From Candidatus Nomurabacteria bacterium (GTDB lineage: Bacteria; Patescibacteriota; Minisyncoccia; Phycocordibacterales; UBA918), in assembly GCA_020632075.1 (NCBI GenBank), contig JACKGH010000001.1, positions 458,852 to 522,851 on the forward strand: DNA of 64,000 nt. Direction: 5' to 3'. Each line of letters opens with the position of its first letter. The stretch's first letter is position 1. This document shows positions 2,088 through 60,920 of this stretch, piece after piece. A program made the translations under genes and the position numbers. Under the pieces are notes generated by a model. The model saw nothing but the letters and a program-made list of their open reading frames with translations. It had not been told where the DNA came from and made no database searches.

Positions 2088-2876
2088 ATGGAACCATCAA
2101 CCGATCAAACATCACCGGCAGTGCCGATCGCGATCATTTGCGGCTTTGCCATGATCGCAATCGCCATCTTCTTCACTAACAAAAACGACCAAGCCCCTGT
2201 TACAAACCAACAAACTGCTGAGCGACAAGCCGGCGTCGGTGAGGCGCGCCCAGTTGATAAGACTGATTACATTTTTGGTAATCCGAACGCACCGATCCTC
2301 ATGGTTGAGTACTCTGACTATGACTGTCCGTTTTGTAAGCAGTACCACTACACCATGGGTCAGATCATGGACGAGTATGGTGTAACCGGTCAAGTAGCAT
2401 GGGTATATCGCCAGTTCCCGCTGGGCGACCTACACCCAAACTCTCCTAAGATCTCAGAGGCTGCACTTTGTGTTGGCGACCTTGGTGGAAACGCAGCTTT
2501 CTGGAAGTTCTCTGATCTAGTATTCGAAGAGCGCGATATCGACGCACCAACTAACGTAACAAAGCTTCCTGAATACGCAGAAGCAGCAGGCGTCGATCGG
2601 ACCAAGTATATTGAGTGTGTCCAAAGTGGCCGCATGGAAGAGAAGGTACTTCAGAGCATTGAGGACGGATACAACTCCGGAGCTCGTGGCACACCGTACA
2701 CAGTACTGATCGCTGGCAATCAACAAGCCGTGATCAGTGGCGCACAGCCGTACGATACCCTTAAGGGAGTAGTACAGAACCTGATCGACCAACTCGAAGG
2801 TACATTCGACCCAAGCACAGCACAACAATCTGGAGAAGTGCCAACTACTGCAAATGGCGTTCCGATCTTGGAGTAG
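2088..2876 (+). CDS. DsbA-like thiol:disulfide oxidoreductase, membrane-anchored
   Basis: 262-aa ORF with N-terminal TM and thioredoxin-fold CPFC active site (YSDYDCPFCKQYH). Confidence 0.8.
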   Translation: MEPSTDQTSPAVPIAIICGFAMIAIAIFFTNKNDQAPVTNQQTAERQAGVGEARPVDKTDYIFGNPNAPILMVEYSDYDCPFCKQYHYTMGQIMDEYGVTGQVAWVYRQFPLGDLHPNSPKISEAALCVGDLGGNAAFWKFSDLVFEERDIDAPTNVTKLPEYAEAAGVDRTKYIECVQSGRMEEKVLQSIEDGYNSGARGTPYTVLIAGNQQAVISGAQPYDTLKGVVQNLIDQLEGTFDPSTAQQSGEVPTTANGVPILE

Positions 2877-2883
2877 GCTACAA

Positions 2884-2927
2884 CAAAAAACAGACGGCGC
2901 CCCTTTGGGCGCCGTCTGTTTTTCTTT
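2884..2927. terminator. bidirectional intrinsic terminator
   Basis: aaaaaa-cagacggcgcc-cctttg-ggcgccgtctg-tttttcttt. Confidence 0.85.
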
Positions 2928-2932
2928 CCTTA

Positions 2933-5900
2933 CTATAGCAACTGCACCAAATGGCAATACTCACTCTCTTTCTCATCGCATGGCGTAGTCAGAAATGCAC
3001 CACTCGCGATTTCTTTGGCAGCTGTAATAATCTCTTGCTTCAACGCTTCCACTTCTTCATCCGTGATCACAAACGATTCTTCATGGATCTGCCCTTTTGC
3101 GTCAGCTCGCACAAACGATAACGCTCCCTCCCGACAGCGATATCGCTCATCATCATAGAGTTCAAGGAGCAGCGCATAAAATACCAGCTGGCGCTTATAT
3201 CCGCCATCAGATGACTTTGTCTTCCCTTCAATATCATTACGTGTCTTTGGCTTACCGGTCTTGTAGTCGACCACGCGCGCCACTGAACCATCTTCATTCA
3301 GATCAAGTCGGTCGAGCTTACCAGTTAGTGGTATTTCTGGCAGATCAGCGTCACCAGTCTCAAGCACCACCTTGATCGAAAATTCTTCCTTGGTGGATTT
3401 TGGTAGGCCGGCTGCCAGGTGTTCACTATAGAGCGTTATCTCTTCGATACCTTGCTCCAATAGCCGCGAGAATTCTTCAGTACTCAAGGGCAGCCGGCCA
3501 AGCTCCTGCTCCAGTTTTTTCTTGATCCAGGTTGTGGTCGGCAATTTCTCCTCGCTCGTATGCACACGAGTCATATACTCCAGCGTATTATGGACTGCCG
3601 TACCATACTGCATGTGCGCCGGCTGTGTTTCAGGAATACGTAAGACATTGCGGTACAGATAATCCCACGGACTACGCAGATAGTTGTTAAGTGACGTCGC
3701 AGAAAAACCACGCTCGACGAGCACCTGTTTTAAAAGTGCTGGATCGATCGCAATGGCTTTGGTCGCTGCAGTCAACGAGGCAATTGGATCAAACTTCTCC
3801 TCCTCAATCTTAGTTGACTCACTAACCACAAACTGCTCATCCACGTCATCAAGCAGTCGAGCCGGAATGAGTTCGCGACCGTCAGCGTTCACCTCTGAAG
3901 TAGACACATGCAGCTGTCGCTTCGCACGAGTCATCGCTACGTATAGAAGCCGACGTTCATCTTCAATAAACTCGTGCTTTTCAACTTCATGCGCCATAAG
4001 CGGTAGGTCAAAGTATGTTTTCTTCCCGGTGCCACTCCAACTAGAGTCGATCAAATGCGGCACCAAGACCACTTCAAACTCAAGTCCCTTAGACTTATGT
4101 GCTGTCATCACTTGCACGGACTCAGTAGCTGTCGAAATGTACGGAGCATTAAGCGGCAAGCCGTATGCTTCACGAGTCGTAAAAATGTCTCCGACTGCTC
4201 GTAAGTCTCCAATACCATCACGTAATACCTGCTCTTCAATCTCATCATACAGACGACGCACCACGCGGGTTCCTTCAAATGGATCATGTGCAATGAGGTG
4301 ATCAAGGAACCCACTTGCTTGTAGTAAATACTCCAGCACCCGATGCGGCGCCTCATGCACCTCGCGCGCACGAGCTTCACTCACCACCTCAGCTACTCGT
4401 AGAAACGAAGCTGGATCACTCACTTTGAGTCGCTCGAGCTCAGCTTCACTACTTATGAGACTCCAGAGTGTTTTATCGTATGATCTTGCATTCAATACCT
4501 TCAGCAGATCATTTACGTCAATCCCCCAGTACGCTCCGTGGAGTACAGTAAAAAGGGCAACTTCGCTTTTATCAGTCACCACCACATTAATCAGCGAACG
4601 CACTGCTTGTGTTACCGGATGCCGAAGGACATCACCGTCAGCTGAGGCAGTTACCGGAATTGCAGCCTTACGCAGCAAGGCTGCAAACTGTTCTACTTCT
4701 CGGTTGGAACGAACAATGATCGCGATCTCGCTCGCTGCAATACCATCTATGAGCAGTGACTGTACCTTTGATACCACCCACGCGTCTTCTACTGCCTGAT
4801 GTGAGAATGAGCGCCTGGTCAGCACTGCTTGATCGACAGCCTTTGCCTCAAGCGGCACACGCAGATCCTTGAGCGGACCTTCATCTACTCGCACCAAACT
4901 GTGTGCAGCATCGAGGATCGTCTGTCCAGACCGGTAGTTCTCAGTAAGAGATATCACTTTGGTCCCCTTGAACTTCTCAGTGAAGTATAAAAAGTTTTCG
5001 AGTGATGCACCCTGAAAACGATAGATCGCCTGCTTCTCATCTCCCACCGCAAAAATGTTCGGTGCATCATGAAACGATGCGAGCAGTTCGAGGATCTTGT
5101 TCTGAGAACCATTCACGTCTTGGTGTTCATCAGCCAAAATGTACAAGTAACGCTCTTGAAGATCACGAAGCATGTCTTCATTCTGCTCGAGCGCTTGGAC
5201 TGTCTCCACGATCATGTCTTCGAAGTCGTAGAGATTCCGATCGTTCAAGAGTGCTTCATACTGCCGATACACATAAATGAGCTCGCGATTCTTTGCGACA
5301 TTCTTTTCTAGCTTGGTGTACTCACCACGCACCTTACCTTTGTGCGCCCCTTTGGTGTGATATCGCTCCACTTCCCCAAGTGCTTGCTCTTGCTGATCGA
5401 CGATCACTACCAACGCGTCTGGGGTAATATACTCCTGCTTAAGCTGACCAATGATGCGCTGCAGATGCGTCACATAGTACGCAGGATTGCCAGCTGGACG
5501 CAGTTGCTTTACGTTGCCGTCATTAACAATCGACTCAATAAGATCGATCTTTTCGAGGTCAGTGGCAGGGCAGCCGCCTATCACACGGTCGTAGGCATCG
5601 GGGTACTCAGAGATCAGGCGCTGCGCGAAGCCATGGAAGGTAAAGATCGGCACTTGATAGGCGGTGGCCCCGATATATTTCCGCAACCGCTGTCGCATTG
5701 CCTTCGCACCCGATTCGGTGAATGTAAGTGCCAAGACACCGTCAGCATGCACATCAGTCAGGCGCAAGATGTTTGCGATTCGCAAGGTAAGGATCTGTGT
5801 CTTGCCTGTACCAGGACCCGCCACGACCATGACTGGCCCTTCGATCGAATCTACCGCTTCTTTCTGTGCGGCGTTTAAGGAAGCGTACGCTTCCTTAAAC

Positions 5901-5935: not shown

Positions 5936-5983
5936 GCCTCACAGTATATCAAATCAACCATTGTTGACTCTTTATAAAAACCC

Positions 5984-6012
5984 TTGCAAAATAGCACTTT
6001 CGGTCGTATAGT
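5984..6012 (+). promoter_or_regulatory. candidate sigma-70 promoter (TTGCAA-17-TATAGT) for the antiporter gene
   Basis: Hexamers read directly; ~35 nt upstream of ATG 6048. Confidence 0.4.
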
Positions 6013-8622: not shown

Positions 8623-9515
8623 TGCCAAACAACCCAGTCATGTTCGAGATAACTGTGTTTTCTAGTGTTGTATACGGCCTAGCGCTGTGTACTGTCTACT
8701 ACCTAGTAGTCTCTGCAATCAAAAAGCAGCTCGTACGAATTCACTTTCGTACAGCTTTTTTCTATATCACACTCTTTTGTCTCTTCGGGATCGCGGGAGA
8801 AGTCTTTGTAAACAATATATGGGAACACATCTTTGGCTGGCCTCTATGGGAGTACCGACTGTTCCCTGCTCACGGCGGTGATATCAGTTACTTCTTTCCA
8901 CTTATCTGGGGCATGCTCGGTTTTTACAAATACATCAATGACACTGCGTTTCACCGCTTCCCGCCCGATCAGCACCTCAAGCCAGCTGTGATCATGGGTG
9001 CCGAGGCGATTCTTCTCGAACTCGTCTACAACGGCTTATTCCTTCTTCTTTTTGATGAATACATCTTTTACTATCTCCCCGCCAACATGGGGCCGCTTTC
9101 GCACCTATCTTGCTGGCAAGTGATTCCATTTTATTTCGTCGTCGGCTTCTTCACGAGCGAGTTGATTCACGGACAACAAAAAGCCGGATACCACAACCGT
9201 GTCTTGCTCCGCATTGCATTCTACTGGATGGTGATTGGAGCCTTGATACTCTTTAGTAAAACCGGCCGGCGGCCTTCGGGGCCGGCCGGTTTTACGTCAT
9301 CTATTTCAAATCCTAATACGACTTCAGTCGTCGCGCCTTCTCGTGCTGGCGGATTTTCTCGAGCGCTTTCGCTTCGATCTGTCGGATACGCTCACGAGTC
9401 ACCCCAAACTCTTTACCAACCTCTTCAAGCGTATGATACGTCCCATCGAGGAGTCCATGTCGCATCTCAAGAATCTTTCGTTCTTTCTCTGAAAGTGTAT
9501 CGAGGATCTCAGTGA
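8622..9515 (+). CDS. hypothetical polytopic membrane protein; 3' end uncertain
   Basis: 297-aa ORF with GTG start overlapping the upstream stop, or ATG at 8640; several hydrophobic segments. The frame reads through the rpoD terminator hairpin (9258-9296) and about 200 nt antisense to the rpoD 3' end. Confidence 0.45.
9258..9296. terminator. intrinsic terminator downstream of rpoD
   Basis: aaaccggccggcggcc-ttcg-gggccggccggtttt (~14-bp GC stem). Confidence 0.85.
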
Positions 9516-14365: not shown

Positions 14366-14404
14366 AGAAAAGGCCGGGCGCGAAGCGCCCGGCCTTTTCT
14401 TTTT
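14366..14404. terminator. bidirectional intrinsic terminator downstream of rpoC
   Basis: aagaaaa-ggccgggcgc-gaa-gcgcccggcc-ttttcttttt. Confidence 0.9.
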
Positions 14405-55927: not shown

Positions 55928-57490
55928 TTAATTTTTTTGTCGCTTAGGAGTCACCCAGAAGCCCATATACTTCCCAAATAGTAACCGAGTCTGTGAATCG
56001 AGTCCTGGGATGGCACTAAAAACCACCATGGTGATTGGCACCATGATCCATTGTACTGCCATTACGACATAGCGGAACCGGCTGTGGTGCGCAGGGCGTG
56101 GCGGCGTGAGTGACAATGAGATGATCGAAGATAACACCAAACCACCCATCGCCAAGATAAGCAGGTTGCGGACCATGATCGGCAGCTCAAAAGAGAGTAG
56201 TGTCTGATGAAAATCCGGGGGGCCGAGATAGATCGGTGCCCAGCCCAAAATGAAAAGCACAAGTGGATAGGTAGCAAGCGACCAGTACCCCTCCCCTTGC
56301 AGTAAGCCAATTGCCCAGCGCTTCTTCAGCGGAATGTCTTTATTCTTCACAAAGTGATACACGATGTAGCACCAGTTCTCGACACCGTACGTCCAACGTC
56401 GATGTTGCTTGTAGATATTTTTGATCGTACCGCGAAGCGTCGGCGCTACCGTTGCATCCATAGCGATCGGGTATGACAATGACACCACTTCAAAATCACC
56501 GTTGTTCGCGACAAGTAAATTCCAATAAATACGCGAATCTTCACTCACCACGTTCGCTTGGCCATAGCCGATCTCATAGAGTGCTTGGAAGCTCACTGAG
56601 TGCGACGAGAATGTCGCCGCTTTCTCCGGACGTTCCTGCATGATCATCTGCCAGAAGGTACTCGACATCGCCATTACGCGTGAGAGCGCTGGCGCATCCC
56701 AGAGATTGTTCGTGAAAAGCGGCACTGGCTGGAACGCGCTCTTGTACGGATTCTCAACGGTCATGAAATGCCAAATAAGACAATTGAAATAATCTGGATA
56801 GATCACTGTGTCGACGTCGAAGATTGATGTGATGACGTTTTTGTACGGAATCTGGTGCTTGTCGATGATCTGCTCACGCACCTGATGCAGGGCATGATGT
56901 GTATTCGAACCCTTTCCGGCCAACTCCCCTGGCAGGTCTGCCGGGTGGACCGTCACCATAAAGTGACCAAACTTGCCGGCATACTTTCGCTCCATCTCGC
57001 GCGCAAGGTTTTCGGCATCTTTGCCGGCGCGGCCTTCGGCCGCGAGCACGACGATCATTTTCTTTGGATCGTATTTGGCTTCAAGTAGACCTTTCAGCGC
57101 CCCTTCAAGCACCTCCTTCGGCTCTTCATAAAATGGGAAGATCACGAGGTGATAAAAATGGTCATAACAAAAACGACCAACGAGCTGCTCCCAATCGAGT
57201 TCCATATGATGCTTCAGCCGCTTCCAATTATGTCGCACATGGTACGACAAGAAGATGGTCTTTAAGAGCCAAAAGACGGCGAAAGCGATAATGAAGTATG
57301 CCGCAAAGAATGATGCATAAATTGACGCGAGTACGAGACCGATCAAAAAACCCCACGACGCGATACCTGGTACGATCTCAAGGAATCGATAAAAACGCCG
57401 GTCTTTGCCGGTTAGTTCTGAGGCGCGAGCGACTTTGAAGTCGGCCCTGCGCGCATATGGAAGCAAATGCGACTGGTCTACCTCCGCCAT
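55928..57490 (-). CDS. processive family-2 glycosyltransferase (cellulose/chitin-synthase-like) with integral membrane domains
   Basis: Start MAEVDQ (the 6-frame ORF starts at 57514); GT-A region with DVDT; QHRRW (QxxRW) motif; N- and C-terminal TM segments. Confidence 0.75.
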   Translation of the reverse strand: MAEVDQSHLLPYARRADFKVARASELTGKDRRFYRFLEIVPGIASWGFLIGLVLASIYASFFAAYFIIAFAVFWLLKTIFLSYHVRHNWKRLKHHMELDWEQLVGRFCYDHFYHLVIFPFYEEPKEVLEGALKGLLEAKYDPKKMIVVLAAEGRAGKDAENLAREMERKYAGKFGHFMVTVHPADLPGELAGKGSNTHHALHQVREQIIDKHQIPYKNVITSIFDVDTVIYPDYFNCLIWHFMTVENPYKSAFQPVPLFTNNLWDAPALSRVMAMSSTFWQMIMQERPEKAATFSSHSVSFQALYEIGYGQANVVSEDSRIYWNLLVANNGDFEVVSLSYPIAMDATVAPTLRGTIKNIYKQHRRWTYGVENWCYIVYHFVKNKDIPLKKRWAIGLLQGEGYWSLATYPLVLFILGWAPIYLGPPDFHQTLLSFELPIMVRNLLILAMGGLVLSSIISLSLTPPRPAHHSRFRYVVMAVQWIMVPITMVVFSAIPGLDSQTRLLFGKYMGFWVTPKRQKN

Positions 57491-57600
57491 ACGTATCCGC
57501 GAGTATATACCCATTTGGGCTTAAAATAAAGGCTTCTGGCGCAACCTTTTCTCGAAAAATAAAACGAACAATTGCACTAGCATTACTTAAAAATATCTGG

Positions 57601-57606
57601 TAGGAT
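57601..57606 (+). promoter_or_regulatory. TAGGAT -10-like element upstream of the tRNA-Thr locus
   Basis: aaaatatctggTAGGATgcatg resembles the TAGGAT motifs at 40425 and 40782. Confidence 0.3.
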
Positions 57607-57621
57607 GCATGTCACCAAAAA

Positions 57622-57645
57622 GCCACCTTTGCTCAGTTGGTAGAG
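57622..57645 (+). other. tRNA-like 5' fragment: 23/24 nt identical to the 5' end of the downstream tRNA-Thr
   Basis: gccacctttgctcagttggtagag versus gccaccttagctcagttggtagag at 57741; no matching 3' half found before the complete tRNA. Confidence 0.6.
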
Positions 57646-57740
57646 TTGAAATAGTCTGGGAGATTATTTCAAAGTTTTGTCACAAAACCGTTGCTCTGAC
57701 CTCTGAAACATTGCGGGCAGTTGGGCACAAAATTAAATAC

Positions 57741-57813
57741 GCCACCTTAGCTCAGTTGGTAGAGCAACGGTTTTGTAAACCGTGGGTCGTCAGTTCGAGT
57801 CTGACAGGTGGCT
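57741..57813 (+). tRNA. tRNA-Thr (anticodon UGU); CCA not encoded
   Basis: Cloverleaf read directly: acceptor GCCACCT/AGGTGGC, D-arm GCTCAGTTGGTAGAGC, anticodon arm ACGGT-TTTGTAA-ACCGT, T-arm GTCAG-TTCGAGT-CTGAC, discriminator U. Confidence 0.9.
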
Positions 57814-57823
57814 CAGAGTACAT

Positions 57824-57863
57824 AAAAGAAAGAGCCGGGCGCTTCGCGCCCGGCTCTTTCTTT
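57824..57863. terminator. bidirectional intrinsic terminator after tRNA-Thr
   Basis: aaaagaaag-agccgggcgc-ttcg-gcgcccggct-ctttcttt. Confidence 0.9.
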
Positions 57864-58305
57864 AAAAACTCTCCTCCAACTTCTTTTTCCGCAATTTCCG
57901 TTGCTCCGCTGGCGTCAATGCCGTCTCTTCTTTGTGCTGTGCCATTTGTCGCAAATGGTTGAGTTCGTGGAGCTCTCGCTTCTCGCGACGCAACTGCTTG
58001 GTCCGCGCCCGATTGCGTTCAAACATACTCTCGAAGTATGTGTACATCGCCACAATACCGCGCAGGAAAGTCCGTAACACACCATGAATACTGTAATACC
58101 AGTTGAGCTGCACGATGTATTTCACAAAGTGCTCCCAACTGCGCACGATCCACGAACCCAGTCGATCTGTTTTATCATCAAGCCAATCACGCAGTGATGA
58201 CGCAAAAAAGCGTCGACCACGACGCTTTTCTGCTCGCACGAGCAATAGTAATGCAACAAAGACAAGGAGCACGATCGTAAATGTCGTTGTTGCAGTAGAG
58301 ATCAT
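57862..58305 (-). CDS. hypothetical membrane-anchored protein
   Basis: 147-aa ORF; N-terminal TM; basic/coiled C-terminus. Confidence 0.5.
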   Translation of the reverse strand: MISTATTTFTIVLLVFVALLLLVRAEKRRGRRFFASSLRDWLDDKTDRLGSWIVRSWEHFVKYIVQLNWYYSIHGVLRTFLRGIVAMYTYFESMFERNRARTKQLRREKRELHELNHLRQMAQHKEETALTPAEQRKLRKKKLEESF

Positions 58306-58311
58306 TGCTGA

Positions 58312-58896
58312 CTATTTTACAGAGACTCGTGAGATCTGTGCAATTGAGATATTCTCACCAAACTTCTGCACGCCACCAGTTACCATCTCACCGATGGTCT
58401 GATCTGGATTCTTCACGAAGTCCTGTTCCATAAGCACCTGATCCTTGAAGTACGAATCAAGCTTGCCTTGCATGATCTTTTCCTTCATGTCTTCTGGCTT
58501 GCCTTCGAGCTCAGGAGCAAACACTTCCTTTGCTTTTTCGATCGCATCTTCTGGAAGTTCATCCTTTGAGATGTACTTTGGATCAGTTGCCGCTACATGC
58601 ATCGCAATATCCTTCGCAAGTGCAACGAATTCTTCGTTCTTTGATACGAAGTCAGTTTCACAGGCTAGCAGCACCACTGCCGCTACTTCATTAGTGTTGT
58701 GTACGTACACACCGACTGCGCCAGCACCAAGTTCACGGTCTGCTTTTTTCTCTGCAGCTTCAGAACGCTTCTTCTTAAGGATGATCACAGCCTTGTCCAT
58801 GTCACCCGCTGCTTCTTCAAGCGCCTTCTTACACTGCATCACTGAGATGCCAGTCTTATCTCGTAATTCTTTGAGTTGTGCTGATGTAATTTCCAT
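58312..58896 (-). CDS. tsf: elongation factor Ts (short form)
   Basis: 194-aa ORF; N-terminal UBA-like ITSAQLKELRDKTGISVMQCKKALEEAAGDMDKA. Confidence 0.9.
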   Translation of the reverse strand: MEITSAQLKELRDKTGISVMQCKKALEEAAGDMDKAVIILKKKRSEAAEKKADRELGAGAVGVYVHNTNEVAAVVLLACETDFVSKNEEFVALAKDIAMHVAATDPKYISKDELPEDAIEKAKEVFAPELEGKPEDMKEKIMQGKLDSYFKDQVLMEQDFVKNPDQTIGEMVTGGVQKFGENISIAQISRVSVK

Positions 58897-58995
58897 ATGA
58901 ATGAATATCCAGAGGATATATTTATGAATGTACGTCTGAATGTGCGCTATTCCCAGCGCACATTCCTAGACGAATCTAACAAATTATAACAGAGA

Positions 58996-59742
58996 CTATG
59001 CAGGACGACGTCGGTCTCCACCACGTGGACGGCTGTCCGCAGGCTTTGGTACGTACGTTGCCTTTCCTTCTGCGTACGCGTCTACCAATTCGTGCACCAA
59101 GAGTGACACACTGCTCTGAAGCGAATCGTTCGCTACTACCGGGTAGGTGATCTTTCGAGCATCACAGTCTGAGCTCATAAGCGCGATCACTGGAATATTC
59201 TTTTCACGAGCTTCGTTGATCGCGATCTCATCATGACGTGGGTCTACCACTACCATAAGATCTGGAAGCTTTGGCATCTTTGCAATACCTGCAAAGTTGA
59301 AGCTGAGCTTATCGATCTCGCGACCAAGCACGACACGCTCCTTCTTGGTGTACTTTCGTTCGAGTTCACCTGATTCCTTTTCGTGCATCAACGCTTCAAG
59401 ACGATTGATACGCTTCTTGATCTCGCTCCAGTTAGTGAGCATACCTCCGATCCAACGGTTAGTCACATATGGTGACTCGGTCTTTTCTGCCGCTGCAGTG
59501 ACGATCTTTGCTGCTTCGTCCTTGGTACTTACAAACAGCACGATCTTGCCGTGTGAACCAGCTTCCTTAAGAGTTTCCTTGGCAGTTTCGAGTAATGCGG
59601 TTGTCTTTTCGAGGTCGATGATATCGCTTCCGTCTTTGGTTGCGAACACATACTTTGCCACCGAAGGGTGACGACGACTCTTCTTAAAACCGAAGTGTGA
59701 CCCGGCTTCAAAAAGCTTGTCGATGATTGATGTTGTTGACAT
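58996..59742 (-). CDS. rpsB: 30S ribosomal protein S2
   Basis: 248-aa ORF; AGSHFGFKKSRRHPSVAKYVF and NRWIGGMLTNW motifs; rpsB-tsf order. Confidence 0.93.
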   Translation of the reverse strand: MSTTSIIDKLFEAGSHFGFKKSRRHPSVAKYVFATKDGSDIIDLEKTTALLETAKETLKEAGSHGKIVLFVSTKDEAAKIVTAAAEKTESPYVTNRWIGGMLTNWSEIKKRINRLEALMHEKESGELERKYTKKERVVLGREIDKLSFNFAGIAKMPKLPDLMVVVDPRHDEIAINEAREKNIPVIALMSSDCDARKITYPVVANDSLQSSVSLLVHELVDAYAEGKATYVPKPADSRPRGGDRRRPA

Positions 59743-59927
59743 AAATATTGTTATTGGCGACTCATGTGAGCTATCACGCGGCGAGACTGGTTACTATTAA
59801 TGCCTCCCGAGGTGAAACAACTGCACGCTGACCGAAGTGAACGTTACGCAGTCTGAGTCTTTCTAAAAAAGCGCCTAATTGCGCTAGCGGCGAGATAGTA
59901 CCATGGCGACGCATGGAGCGCAATAGA

Positions 59928-60920
59928 TTATTCATCTTCGTCAGTACCAAGTTCGCCACCTGCAGCGACTTTCTGCAGCGACTCTACGATCGGACCAAGT
60001 GCCCCACCAAGGGTTGCCTCGATCGAGTGCCATGACTGCTTAATACGATGATCGGTGATGCGATTTTGCGGGAAGTTGTAGGTACGGATCTTTTCTGAAC
60101 GATCACCAGTACCGATCTGATTTTTGCGCGTATCGGCGTGCTTTTTCATTTCTTCTTCTTCATGCATTGCTTCAAGCTTCGCGATCAAAAGTGTCATCGC
60201 TTTTTCACGATTCTTCAACTGTGAACGCTCACTCTGGGAACGCACATCAACACCAGTCGGACGATGAATGAGTCGTACTGCAGTTTCCACCTTGTTGACA
60301 TTCTGACCGCCAGCGCCCCCAGAGCGTGAAAATTCCATATCAATATCGCTTGGATTGATCTCGATACTTGGCTTTTTACGCAGTGGCAAAATTGCCACCG
60401 ATGCAGTAGAGGTATGAATACGGCCCTGCTTCTCGGTCGCCGGAATACGCTGTACACGATGAACACCCGTTTCATAGCGCAGGTCTTCATATGCCTTTGG
60501 GTGCAAGATCTCAAACGCCGCTTCTTTGTATCCACCCGCTTCAGTCGCTGAGACATGCTCAGTGGTGCGCGGCCAGCCATTTACTTCGGCATACTTTAGA
60601 TACATGTTGGCTAACTCACCTGCAAAGAGCGACGCTTCATCGCCACCAGCACCAGCCCGCACTTCGAGAACGACACCATACGGCTTTGCTTCCTCTTCTC
60701 TACTTGCTTCAATGATGTGGTCCATTTCATCCCATTGTCCTTGAAGCTGCTTGGTGAGTGATTCGATTTCTTCTTGTGCAAGCTCTGCCATTTCTGGATC
60801 TGATGCAGCAAGTTCCTCAGCTTCGCGGAGCTTCGCAAGCTCACTCTCAAACTGCGACGCCAAAAATTGCGTCTTTTGATTTTCTTTGAATTCTTTCAGT
60901 TTGTCTTGGTCGATCTCCAT
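59928..60920 (-). CDS. prfA: peptide chain release factor 1
   Basis: 330-aa ORF; GGQ motif [13 protein letters not shown]; PAT tripeptide motif (RIPATEKQG) indicating RF1. Confidence 0.9.

Follow-up and report, generated by a model that had tools for sequence, protein, structure and literature searches.

We examined the leader of a transfer RNA (tRNA) gene, tRNA-Thr(UGU), in a stretch of 64,000 nucleotides (nt) from a Candidatus Nomurabacteria genome (the window; coordinates are positions in the window, and the gene lies on the + strand). This leader contains a conserved structured RNA element that is found beside tRNA-Thr in Patescibacteria and that we named the HA element. The view that the HA element is a conserved and selected structured leader derived from tRNA-Thr is well supported. 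Strand-swap folding is a plausible mechanism for it according to the predicted folds, and we consider the evidence evenly balanced for the fuller reading, in which the HA element is a conserved tRNA-Thr leader that would operate through such folding.

The intact tRNA-Thr(UGU) gene occupies 57741-57814 (+), does not encode CCA and is the sole tRNA called by ARAGORN in the window. It matches the Rfam tRNA model (RF00005) at 57741-57813/14 with 71.2 bits, the family threshold being 29 bits. The preceding segment, 57598-57740, probably comprises the promoter and leader of this gene. We read an extended -10 box, TGgTAGGAT, at 57598-57606 (+), in which TAGGAT (57601-57606) follows TGg (57598-57600); if this box acts as a promoter, transcription would start at approximately 57613. 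The sequence-only reading of this stretch had proposed TAGGAT as a -10-like box, which is borne out by boxes of the form TGnTAnnAT or GCATAAT located 12-30 nt 5' of the element in orthologues, and not by a strict scan for the sigma-70 -35/-10 consensus, which returned no match. In loci that lack the element, the same kinds of box lie 12-55 nt 5' of the tRNA.

The element starts with a decoy 5' half (57622-57645, +), a copy of tRNA-Thr nt 1-24 that is identical at 23/24 positions, the single difference being A9->T, and that comprises the acceptor 5' strand and the D arm without C25. No T arm and no acceptor 3' strand follow this copy, and merely faint remnants of them can be aligned. Both observations reproduce those of the sequence-only reading, which had overlooked hairpin A, directly 3' of the copy (57646-57672, +). 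Hairpin A consists of a perfect stem of 12 base pairs (bp; 57646-57657 with 57661-57672) closed by a GGG triloop (57658-57660); it is inserted after tRNA position 24 and has no counterpart in the tRNA. An anticodon-region mimic, AGTTTTGT, with loop C (57673-57681, +) corresponds approximately to tRNA nt 29-36 and provides the 5' strand of hairpin B. The antisense segment (57682-57706, +) follows; its first 7 nt pair with 57674-57680 and thereby close hairpin B. Within this segment, 57682-57697 complements tRNA nt 21-36 (57761-57776) without a mismatch, and over the full 25 nt 84% of positions are complementary (57682-57706 with 57752-57776, tRNA nt 12-36). An antisense segment had previously been placed at 57685-57699; the segment is real, and that position was 2 nt off. 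The unconserved spacer (57707-57740, +) ends in an A/T-rich proximal leader, AAAATTAAATAC, and a AAATTAAATA-like spacer end is also present in loci without the element. The distance between the two direct repeats, i.e., the decoy and the tRNA 5' end, is 95 nt.

We compared the occurrence of these repeats with expectation in the window. Allowing up to 2 mismatches, the 15-mer GCTCAGTTGGTAGAG was observed 2 times (0.12 expected) and the 16-mer AGAGCAACGGTTTTGT was also observed 2 times, once per strand (0.08 expected), indicating that chance is not the explanation for the copy and the antisense. The sequence-only reading had named the call of a second intact tRNA at this position as evidence against its parse; neither ARAGORN nor the Rfam tRNA model called a tRNA in 57600-57740, even at E<=10, and the Rfam tRNA model gave no match other than tRNA-Thr in 57300-58100 at the same limit. 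In the Rfam E-value search around tRNA-Thr, matches to other families were sub-threshold noise only.

Relatives were assessed in 80 loci from species-representative genomes, which were retrieved through the neighbouring glycosyltransferase (GT) protein and thus independently of the element. These GT-anchored loci belong to metagenome-assembled genomes of Patescibacteria (Paceibacteria, Nomurabacteria, Kaiserbacteria and others) and showed 53-85% protein identity. tRNA-Thr(UGU) was present in the same gap, with the glycosyltransferase gene on one side and the gene for a 147-amino-acid (aa) protein and tsf on the other, in 64/80 loci. Approximately two dozen of these loci contained a direct copy of nt 1-24 of their own tRNA, 85-99 nt 5' of the tRNA, and many of those also contained an inverted copy of tRNA nt ~21-38, located 40-47 nt 5' of the tRNA. 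The common upstream order was the promoter box, nt 1-24, a 27-nt hairpin, the anticodon-loop sequence, its complement, an unalignable spacer of ~40 nt and the tRNA. That is, the fragment, whose absence from close relatives the sequence-only reading would have taken as the mark of a neutral relic, is present in relatives. Further instances were collected by scanning metagenome contigs with a degenerate element pattern. Together, the two sources gave ~45 distinct instances, all in Patescibacteria and all co-oriented with an adjoining tRNA-Thr(UGU), although the exclusive association with tRNA-Thr has to be read knowing that the scan pattern required TTGT and that almost no other tRNAs are present in the loci compared.

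The instances occurred in two positions. In the U-type, as in the window, the element starts 110-125 nt before the tRNA start. In the D-type, it starts 18-20 nt past the end of the tRNA and leads into a tRNA 3' half of its own, which has a T arm and an acceptor 3' strand. The units of both types are ~118 nt long, and the insertion in the pseudo-half measures 23-27 nt and is placed after position 24. The HA element is derived from a tRNA-Thr paralogue, and full-length versions of it are present in related loci. We built a covariance model, R1, from the end of the D arm, hairpin A and the tail. At E<1e-3, R1 gave 33 matches in 30/80 GT-anchored loci, every one at the tRNA-Thr locus; in the window, its only match was 57638-57680 (64.7 bits, E 2e-12). 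On the glycosyltransferase tree, U or D was present in most genomes of the nearer clade, and sister genomes differed in type: the window, L053 and L002 have U, whereas L001 and L023 have D. This is expected if U and D are alternative supplies of one element. The architecture and spacing remained stereotyped down to 57% identity of the flanking protein.

Several loci carry more than one copy or an altered copy. L204 shows the order U, U, tRNA, D, D (2585-3180), and in L146 the tRNA is followed by three D copies with a 118-nt period (reverse strand, ~4020-4446). The L146 copies are identical, full-length hairpin-A pseudo-tRNAs of 97 nt, and the last copy alone has a different T loop and trailer. 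The D-types of L031 and L121 share a homologous insertion of ~71 nt at the same site in the T stem, bounded by terminal inverted repeats (GTATCC/GGATAC), and those of L023 and L126 have a common insertion of ~55 nt in the T loop; these insertions in D-type 3' halves may be miniature mobile or intervening sequences. The more distant L062 and L067 have another upstream repeat, consisting of two or three tandem units of ~55-75 nt, each of which begins with a copy of the first 12-22 nt of the tRNA and continues with another hairpin (CTTGG...CCAAG). Leader units that mimic the tRNA 5' end may therefore be a wider theme.

Hairpin A was assessed for covariation in 47 distinct homologues, in which double changes were found at 12/12 pairs. 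The cells of hairpin A were paired in 90.4% of cases, compared with 68.5% in shuffles, and 0/500 shuffles reached the observed values; this set retained only instances with >=9/12 pairs, which inflates the paired percentage. Pairing in slid registers was <=55%. Selection on the hairpin played no part in assembling the GT-anchored subset, in which nearly every upstream copy has hairpin A. Mismatches were asymmetric, with 16 G.U versus 5 A.C and 39 G.A/A.G versus 1 C.U, including tandem G.A at stem positions 3-4 in one class, indicating that hairpin A folds on the tRNA-sense strand, as RNA would. The GGG loop and four base pairs were nearly invariant, which hints that the loop may have a partner. 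The bases flanking GGG covaried as Watson-Crick pairs (CU/AG, AU/AU, CC/GG, UC/GA), indicating that GGG is a triloop on a 12-bp stem and not part of a 7-nt anticodon loop with an invariant U33. The spacer, which was unconserved in an alignment of 22 precursors, served as an internal neutral control. Gene conversion from the tRNA cannot be what maintains hairpin A, since the tRNA contains nothing that corresponds to it.

Other identities were tried for hairpin A and rejected. A dispersed palindrome or terminator does not fit, as hairpin A is unique in the window, being the sole GGG-triloop hairpin found by a scan, and is unlike the GC-rich terminators, which have TTC or GAA loops. A dispersed repeat resembling repetitive extragenic palindromes or miniature inverted-repeat transposable elements was set aside on account of a single copy in 64 kilobases (kb) at <=3 mismatches and the one R1 match. 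Elsewhere, a 12-bp GGG-triloop hairpin spans the stop codon at the 3' end of pheT in L033 (~9480-9507) and L041 (~5964-5996; …TGGGAGGTGAGATAG…); the L041 hairpin resembles hairpin A and scores 24.7 bits with R1 (E 0.0075).

We then compared the element with the tRNA beside it. Acceptor stem types differ across lineages (GCCACCT, GCCATCT, GCCGCCT, GCCAGCT, GCCGATT and GCCGGGA), and nt 1-7 of the decoy equalled the version of the local tRNA in 22/30 orthologous U-types. Leaving out two degenerate cases, the mismatch rate was 0.043 per site for decoy nt 1-7 and similar, at 0.069, for nt 8-24; among the private changes of the acceptor copy, only half preserve wobble pairing. The mimic and the antisense track the local anticodon stem and loop as well (GTTTTGT, CATTTGT, CACTTGT, GATTTGT). 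In the GGTTTGT class, one T is gone from the sense mimic and the antisense still matches the four T's of the tRNA, GGTTTTGT. The predicted duplex of the antisense in the window was -35.0 kcal/mol with tRNA nt 1-40 versus -15.8 kcal/mol with the element's own 5' half. The corresponding means across loci were -22.9 and -15.9 kcal/mol, and the tRNA was the better partner in 21/23 loci.

Co-folding of the leader with the tRNA, a check that had been proposed for this leader, returned a swapped fold as the predicted optimum in the window. For the presumed primary transcript (57613-57817), the minimum free energy was -71.3 kcal/mol (z = -4.4 versus shuffles). Leader and tRNA folded apart gave a total of -61.0 kcal/mol; that is, the swapped fold is predicted to be ~10 kcal/mol more stable. 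In this fold, decoy nt 1-7 are paired with the tRNA 3' acceptor strand, the decoy D arm, hairpin A and the T arm are formed, and the antisense lies in a long helix with genuine tRNA nt 12-36. The leader alone is predicted to adopt a compact Y shape (-34 kcal/mol, z = -2.0), in which the antisense is held by its own sense copy and CGUUG is unpaired. The swapped acceptor pairing was the predicted optimum in 21/28 orthologous precursors and was also part of the consensus that RNAalifold gave for 22 precursors. In the controls, 34 related loci with no upstream element, the leader invaded the tRNA body in 1/34.

On the basis of these predictions, we propose a primary transcript with two mutually exclusive folds. 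In fold I, which would form first during transcription, the antisense would be bound by the element's imperfect sense copy, giving a Y-shaped leader and a normal tRNA; cleavage by ribonuclease P (RNase P) at 57741 would then separate tRNA-Thr from a leader of ~128 nt. Fold II would be reached by strand displacement, for which CGUUG could be the toehold: the antisense would bind nt 12-36 of the genuine 5' half, and the decoy 5' half would pair with the tRNA 3' acceptor strand. The product would be a tRNA-shaped RNA of ~193 nt with an acceptor stem, a D arm, hairpin A replacing the anticodon arm, and a T arm. The stand-alone D-type copies that sister genomes have downstream of the tRNA would share this core. 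On this model, the element would either divert or gate the maturation of tRNA-Thr or yield a non-decoding mimic of this tRNA. The two-fold model accounts for the spare half, the antisense, the coupling to the tRNA and the presence of either U or D in a genome. Its strongest form, which we regard as possible but doubtful, is a natural strand-swap switch in a pre-tRNA, where two interchangeable 5' halves would be available for each 3' half and the antisense would choose between them, leading either to the decoding tRNA or to the hairpin-A mimic.

Several points weigh against this reading. The two-fold model is built on nearest-neighbour energies. These leave out the order of folding during transcription, tertiary structure and tRNA modifications, and each of the three favours the normal tRNA. 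The decoy cells were able to pair with the tRNA 3' acceptor strand in 96.1% of cases (100% for the genuine strand); however, this ability is a trivial result of being a copy. Gene conversion could likewise produce the agreement of the decoy with the local tRNA, although it is a less likely cause of an inverted segment changing in parallel with the tRNA. The antisense is missing from five short U-types and from the D-types, which are often interrupted by insertions, and the acceptor strand is gone from several copies. The selection of the covariation set and the bias of the scan towards tRNA-Thr, given above with the respective results, count on the same side.

We weighed these data against four other explanations. 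The HA element may instead act in trans, as a stable small RNA or as a protein decoy or platform, e.g., for threonyl-tRNA synthetase (ThrRS), a modification enzyme or a tRNA-targeting nuclease; RNase P and RNase Z would excise it, and the antisense would stabilise the leader. Its occurrence either upstream or downstream of the tRNA would suit such a role, as would the retention of the UUUGUAA anticodon-loop sequence in U and D types, the compact Y predicted for the leader alone at -34 kcal/mol, and the near-invariant base pairs and GGG loop, which fit a sequence-specific partner. We nevertheless find a trans-acting element somewhat unlikely, because it leaves unexplained why the antisense fits the tRNA better than its own sense strand and why it reaches into tRNA nt 21-28, which have no partner in the element. 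In addition, the leader alone is barely more stable than shuffles (z = -2.0), and no candidate partner protein was found encoded nearby in the 7 kb listed, of which the four nearest products were searched against Pfam. An improbable explanation, in our view, is a non-functional by-product of recombination at a tRNA hot spot, in which unequal crossing-over or Campbell-type integration left partial tandem duplicates, gene conversion kept them similar and hairpin A is an old palindromic insertion. It draws on the relatives in which variable cargo genes and exact repeats of the tRNA 3' part lie downstream of the tRNA, the tandem expansions (three copies in L146; U, U, tRNA, D, D in L204), the cassette orientation flipped between close relatives, and the nt 1-24 direct repeats, which permit simple loss and match the loci with very short leaders. 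However, the neutral spacer is unalignable, yet the pairing of hairpin A is kept by double substitutions with strand-specific mismatches; the architecture and spacing stay fixed to as little as 57% identity of the flanking protein; and an antisense endangering an essential tRNA should decay, but it is kept and updated. Furthermore, known integrases restore the 3' part of a tRNA, and here it is the 5' end that is duplicated; no integrase-like open reading frame (ORF) was seen in the islands, judged just by length and N-terminus with no Pfam run.

A role at the DNA level appears very unlikely. In such a role, the palindromes would fold in single-stranded DNA or bind a dimeric protein, and the element would be an origin-like hairpin, a site of recombination or one end of a ~118-nt miniature mobile element. 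The common ~118-nt length of U and D units, the perfect or nearly perfect palindromes A and B and the frequent rearrangement of the locus are in keeping with a DNA-level role. Recognition of duplex DNA by a protein is made less likely by the free variation of the arm sequences, and the tandem G.A and the G.T excess on the transcribed-sense strand fit RNA. Hairpin A is moreover undispersed, with one copy in the 64 kb of the window, the element always lies within the tRNA transcription unit and is co-oriented with it, and none of the 14 degenerate-pattern matches in IMG/VR viral contigs was a true instance, as none had hairpin complementarity or a tRNA context. Finally, we give almost no credence to a second, unusual tRNA gene, whether split, permuted, intron-containing or a tRNA-Pro(GGG). 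The last of these comes from ARAGORN, which calls the full-length D copies of L146 a 97-nt tRNA-Pro(GGG) with hairpin A as the anticodon arm; this call was rejected as an artefact, as the covariation of the GGG-flanking bases as pairs describes a 12-bp stem with a triloop, and a 12-bp arm cannot decode on the ribosome. The D-type copies were missed by the Rfam tRNA model even at E<=1, no tRNA was called at the element in the window, and the intact tRNA-Thr beside every copy means that nothing needs splicing. Among the three possibilities raised by the sequence-only reading, a leader able to pair with the tRNA is the best supported, given its position between promoter and tRNA and an antisense that tracks the tRNA and prefers it. 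A relic of integration at the tRNA 5' end is not supported, given the 95 nt between the repeats, an arrangement stereotyped across deeply diverged genomes and the covarying hairpin. A pseudo-tRNA holds only with respect to the origin from a tRNA-Thr paralogue; the element is no decaying pseudogene and is not called a tRNA by any tool.

We compared the HA element, taken as a structured leader of tRNA-Thr, with known systems. T-boxes regulate mRNAs of aminoacyl-tRNA synthetase and amino-acid genes and bind a folded tRNA in trans through Stem I and the antiterminator. The HA leader likewise holds the complement of a tRNA anticodon (ACA in the antisense), and, judging from its letters, its G-rich loop could in principle pair with the tRNA 3' end (UGGN in the T-box; here GGG with U73-C74-C75). 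In contrast to a T-box, its partner is the tRNA of the same transcript, the complementarity spans 11-25 nt, and pairing needs an unfolded tRNA. There was no Rfam match to the T-box family (RF00230) at E<=10, and the only terminator lies after the tRNA, with no terminator/antiterminator pair.

Attachment (att) repeats of integrative elements duplicate the 3' part of a tRNA, flank kilobases of foreign DNA and decay neutrally. The HA element resembles them in placing a direct repeat of part of a tRNA beside the intact gene, and 3'-part repeats with cargo do occur in relatives; however, the HA element repeats the 5' part, at a distance of 95 nt and within the transcription unit, and a covarying hairpin and an antisense are attached to this repeat. 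An att relic was rejected, considering a repeat of nt 1-24 with 95 nt between the copies, a register fixed in ~45 instances and the covariation of the hairpin. No integrase ORF was evident in the 7 kb listed around the tRNA, where only the four nearest products were run against Pfam. Other RNAs imitate tRNAs, including the E. coli thrS operator, the tRNA-like domain of transfer-messenger RNA (tmRNA) and YrlA. As in these mimics, tRNA features are copied without decoding and a long helix replaces the anticodon arm. The HA element differs from them in having no sequence or Rfam match to them, in being built from the 5' half of the tRNA itself, and in that the U-type borrows the real 3' half.

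The split tRNAs of Nanoarchaeum equitans (overview PMC4033280) have halves that are joined via complementary flanks, and there is no intact gene. They share with the HA element a separate 5' half followed by sequence complementary to another part of the locus. The HA element is distinguished by the presence of an intact tRNA, a half that ends at nt 24 with an extra hairpin, and a bacterial host without a known splicing endonuclease. A split or permuted tRNA gene was rejected, since intact tRNA-Thr adjoins every instance. Group I introns in Patescibacteria tRNA genes are located in the anticodon loop, e.g., at 35/36 (PMC13011429). Such an intron was also rejected here: the tRNA is uninterrupted, there is no Intron_gpI match, and the insertion of 23-27 nt lies after position 24 of the pseudo-half.

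Synthetic RNase P riboswitches are engineered, ligand-controlled 5' leaders of pre-tRNAs (PMC7897497, PMC8925977) and would be the nearest functional analogue of the HA element. In both, a bacterial pre-tRNA has a structured 5' leader whose alternative pairings decide, or in our case would decide, maturation by RNase P. The synthetic designs, which respond to a ligand, act where the leader is single-stranded by the cleavage site, whereas the HA element is natural, is predicted to pair with the tRNA body (nt 12-36) and has a spare 5' half. As expected of a cis-acting structured leader, the element appears from its position to lie on the sense strand, co-oriented with the tRNA and preceded by a conserved extended -10 box, and hairpin A covaries at 12/12 pairs. 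A gathering-mode Rfam search of four related loci found canonical tRNAs only, and a literature search found no description of such a leader. We therefore place the HA element among cis-encoded structured leaders or tRNA-derived RNA elements; its architecture is distinct, and we found no description of a natural counterpart.

The leaders of bacterial tRNAs are commonly taken to be short throw-away sequences. Here, a natural leader that combines a spare half of its tRNA with an additional, covarying hairpin and an antisense to that tRNA is conserved in a broad group of ultra-small Patescibacteria. To our knowledge, control of tRNA supply through precursor folding is known only from engineered RNase P riboswitches. 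In organisms with much of their protein-based regulation lost, the HA element is a candidate for controlling or re-using an essential, single-copy tRNA through RNA. If the swapped product exists, it would represent a new class of tRNA-derived regulator or a Thr-acceptor mimic in reduced Patescibacteria genomes. For annotation, the HA element is a new RNA motif for which the covariance model R1 is available, and the calling of its full-length relatives as a 97-nt tRNA-Pro(GGG) by ARAGORN deserves a warning.

In the window, the element and tRNA-Thr lie between a GT2-family glycosyltransferase gene (55928-57514, -; Pfam) and the convergent gene for the uncharacterised 147-aa protein (57862-58305, -), which is followed by tsf and rpsB. 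The four nearest products searched against Pfam were the GT2 glycosyltransferase, EF-Ts and two without a match. Compared with the glycosyltransferase and 147-aa genes on its flanks, the cassette of promoter, element and tRNA is inverted, and the same inversion was found in 11/64 relatives (L006, L016, L019, L020, L024, L028, L039, L045, L047, L051 and L073). In L053 and L002, the cassettes are ~86% identical to that of the window and have the opposite orientation. The window showed no inverted repeats on either side of the cassette.

Variable islands of 0.7-3 kb lie directly 3' of the tRNA in L014, L019, L020, L022, L024, L060, L062, L071 and others. Their cargo includes ~590-aa proteins common to L014, L019, L020 and L022, as well as ~380-390-aa and ~300-330-aa proteins common to L060 and L062. 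Perfect copies of the tRNA 3' part are present downstream of the tRNA in many relatives (e.g., L001, L022, L031, L064 and L071). Among the island ORFs of 15 relatives, none appeared integrase-like by length and N-terminus, a weak negative because these ORFs were not run against Pfam. The tRNA-Thr locus behaves as an integration hot spot, and with its inversions, tandem units and cargo islands it is a fast-rearranging spot in these genomes.

An exact-protein look-up identified six public assemblies (L215-L220; SRR15882951, SRR6747736, ERZ28655481, ERZ27309210 and others) with contigs 99.85% identical to 57786-60500 of the window and in the same orientation. The two contigs that pass the 147-aa gene end in the terminator (57849) or inside the tRNA (57786), and the remaining four end within or at the end of the 147-aa gene; ending in or near the tRNA, these contigs are uninformative on the presence or absence of the element. 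These end points hint that assemblies are broken at the tRNA-Thr locus by the repeats or by strain heterogeneity.

The terminator after the tRNA (57825-57863) is a bidirectional intrinsic terminator, a perfect GC-rich palindrome of 18 bp with a TTC loop, an A run before it and a T run after it. It overlaps the stop codon of the convergent 147-aa gene and was not flagged by a simple terminator scan. Terminators of the window near 14382, 23712, 27217, 49298 and 57843 are all perfect GC-rich palindromes of 15-23 bp, with TTC/GAA or AAA/TTT triloops between A and T runs, and could thus work both ways. In L001, L013, L023, L028 and L049, the leader and the trailer of the tRNA are complementary over 8-11 nt and a T run follows, one example having AAAGCTGCGA before and TCGCAGCTTTTT after the tRNA; in these loci, the tRNA forms the tip of a long stem that resembles an intrinsic terminator.

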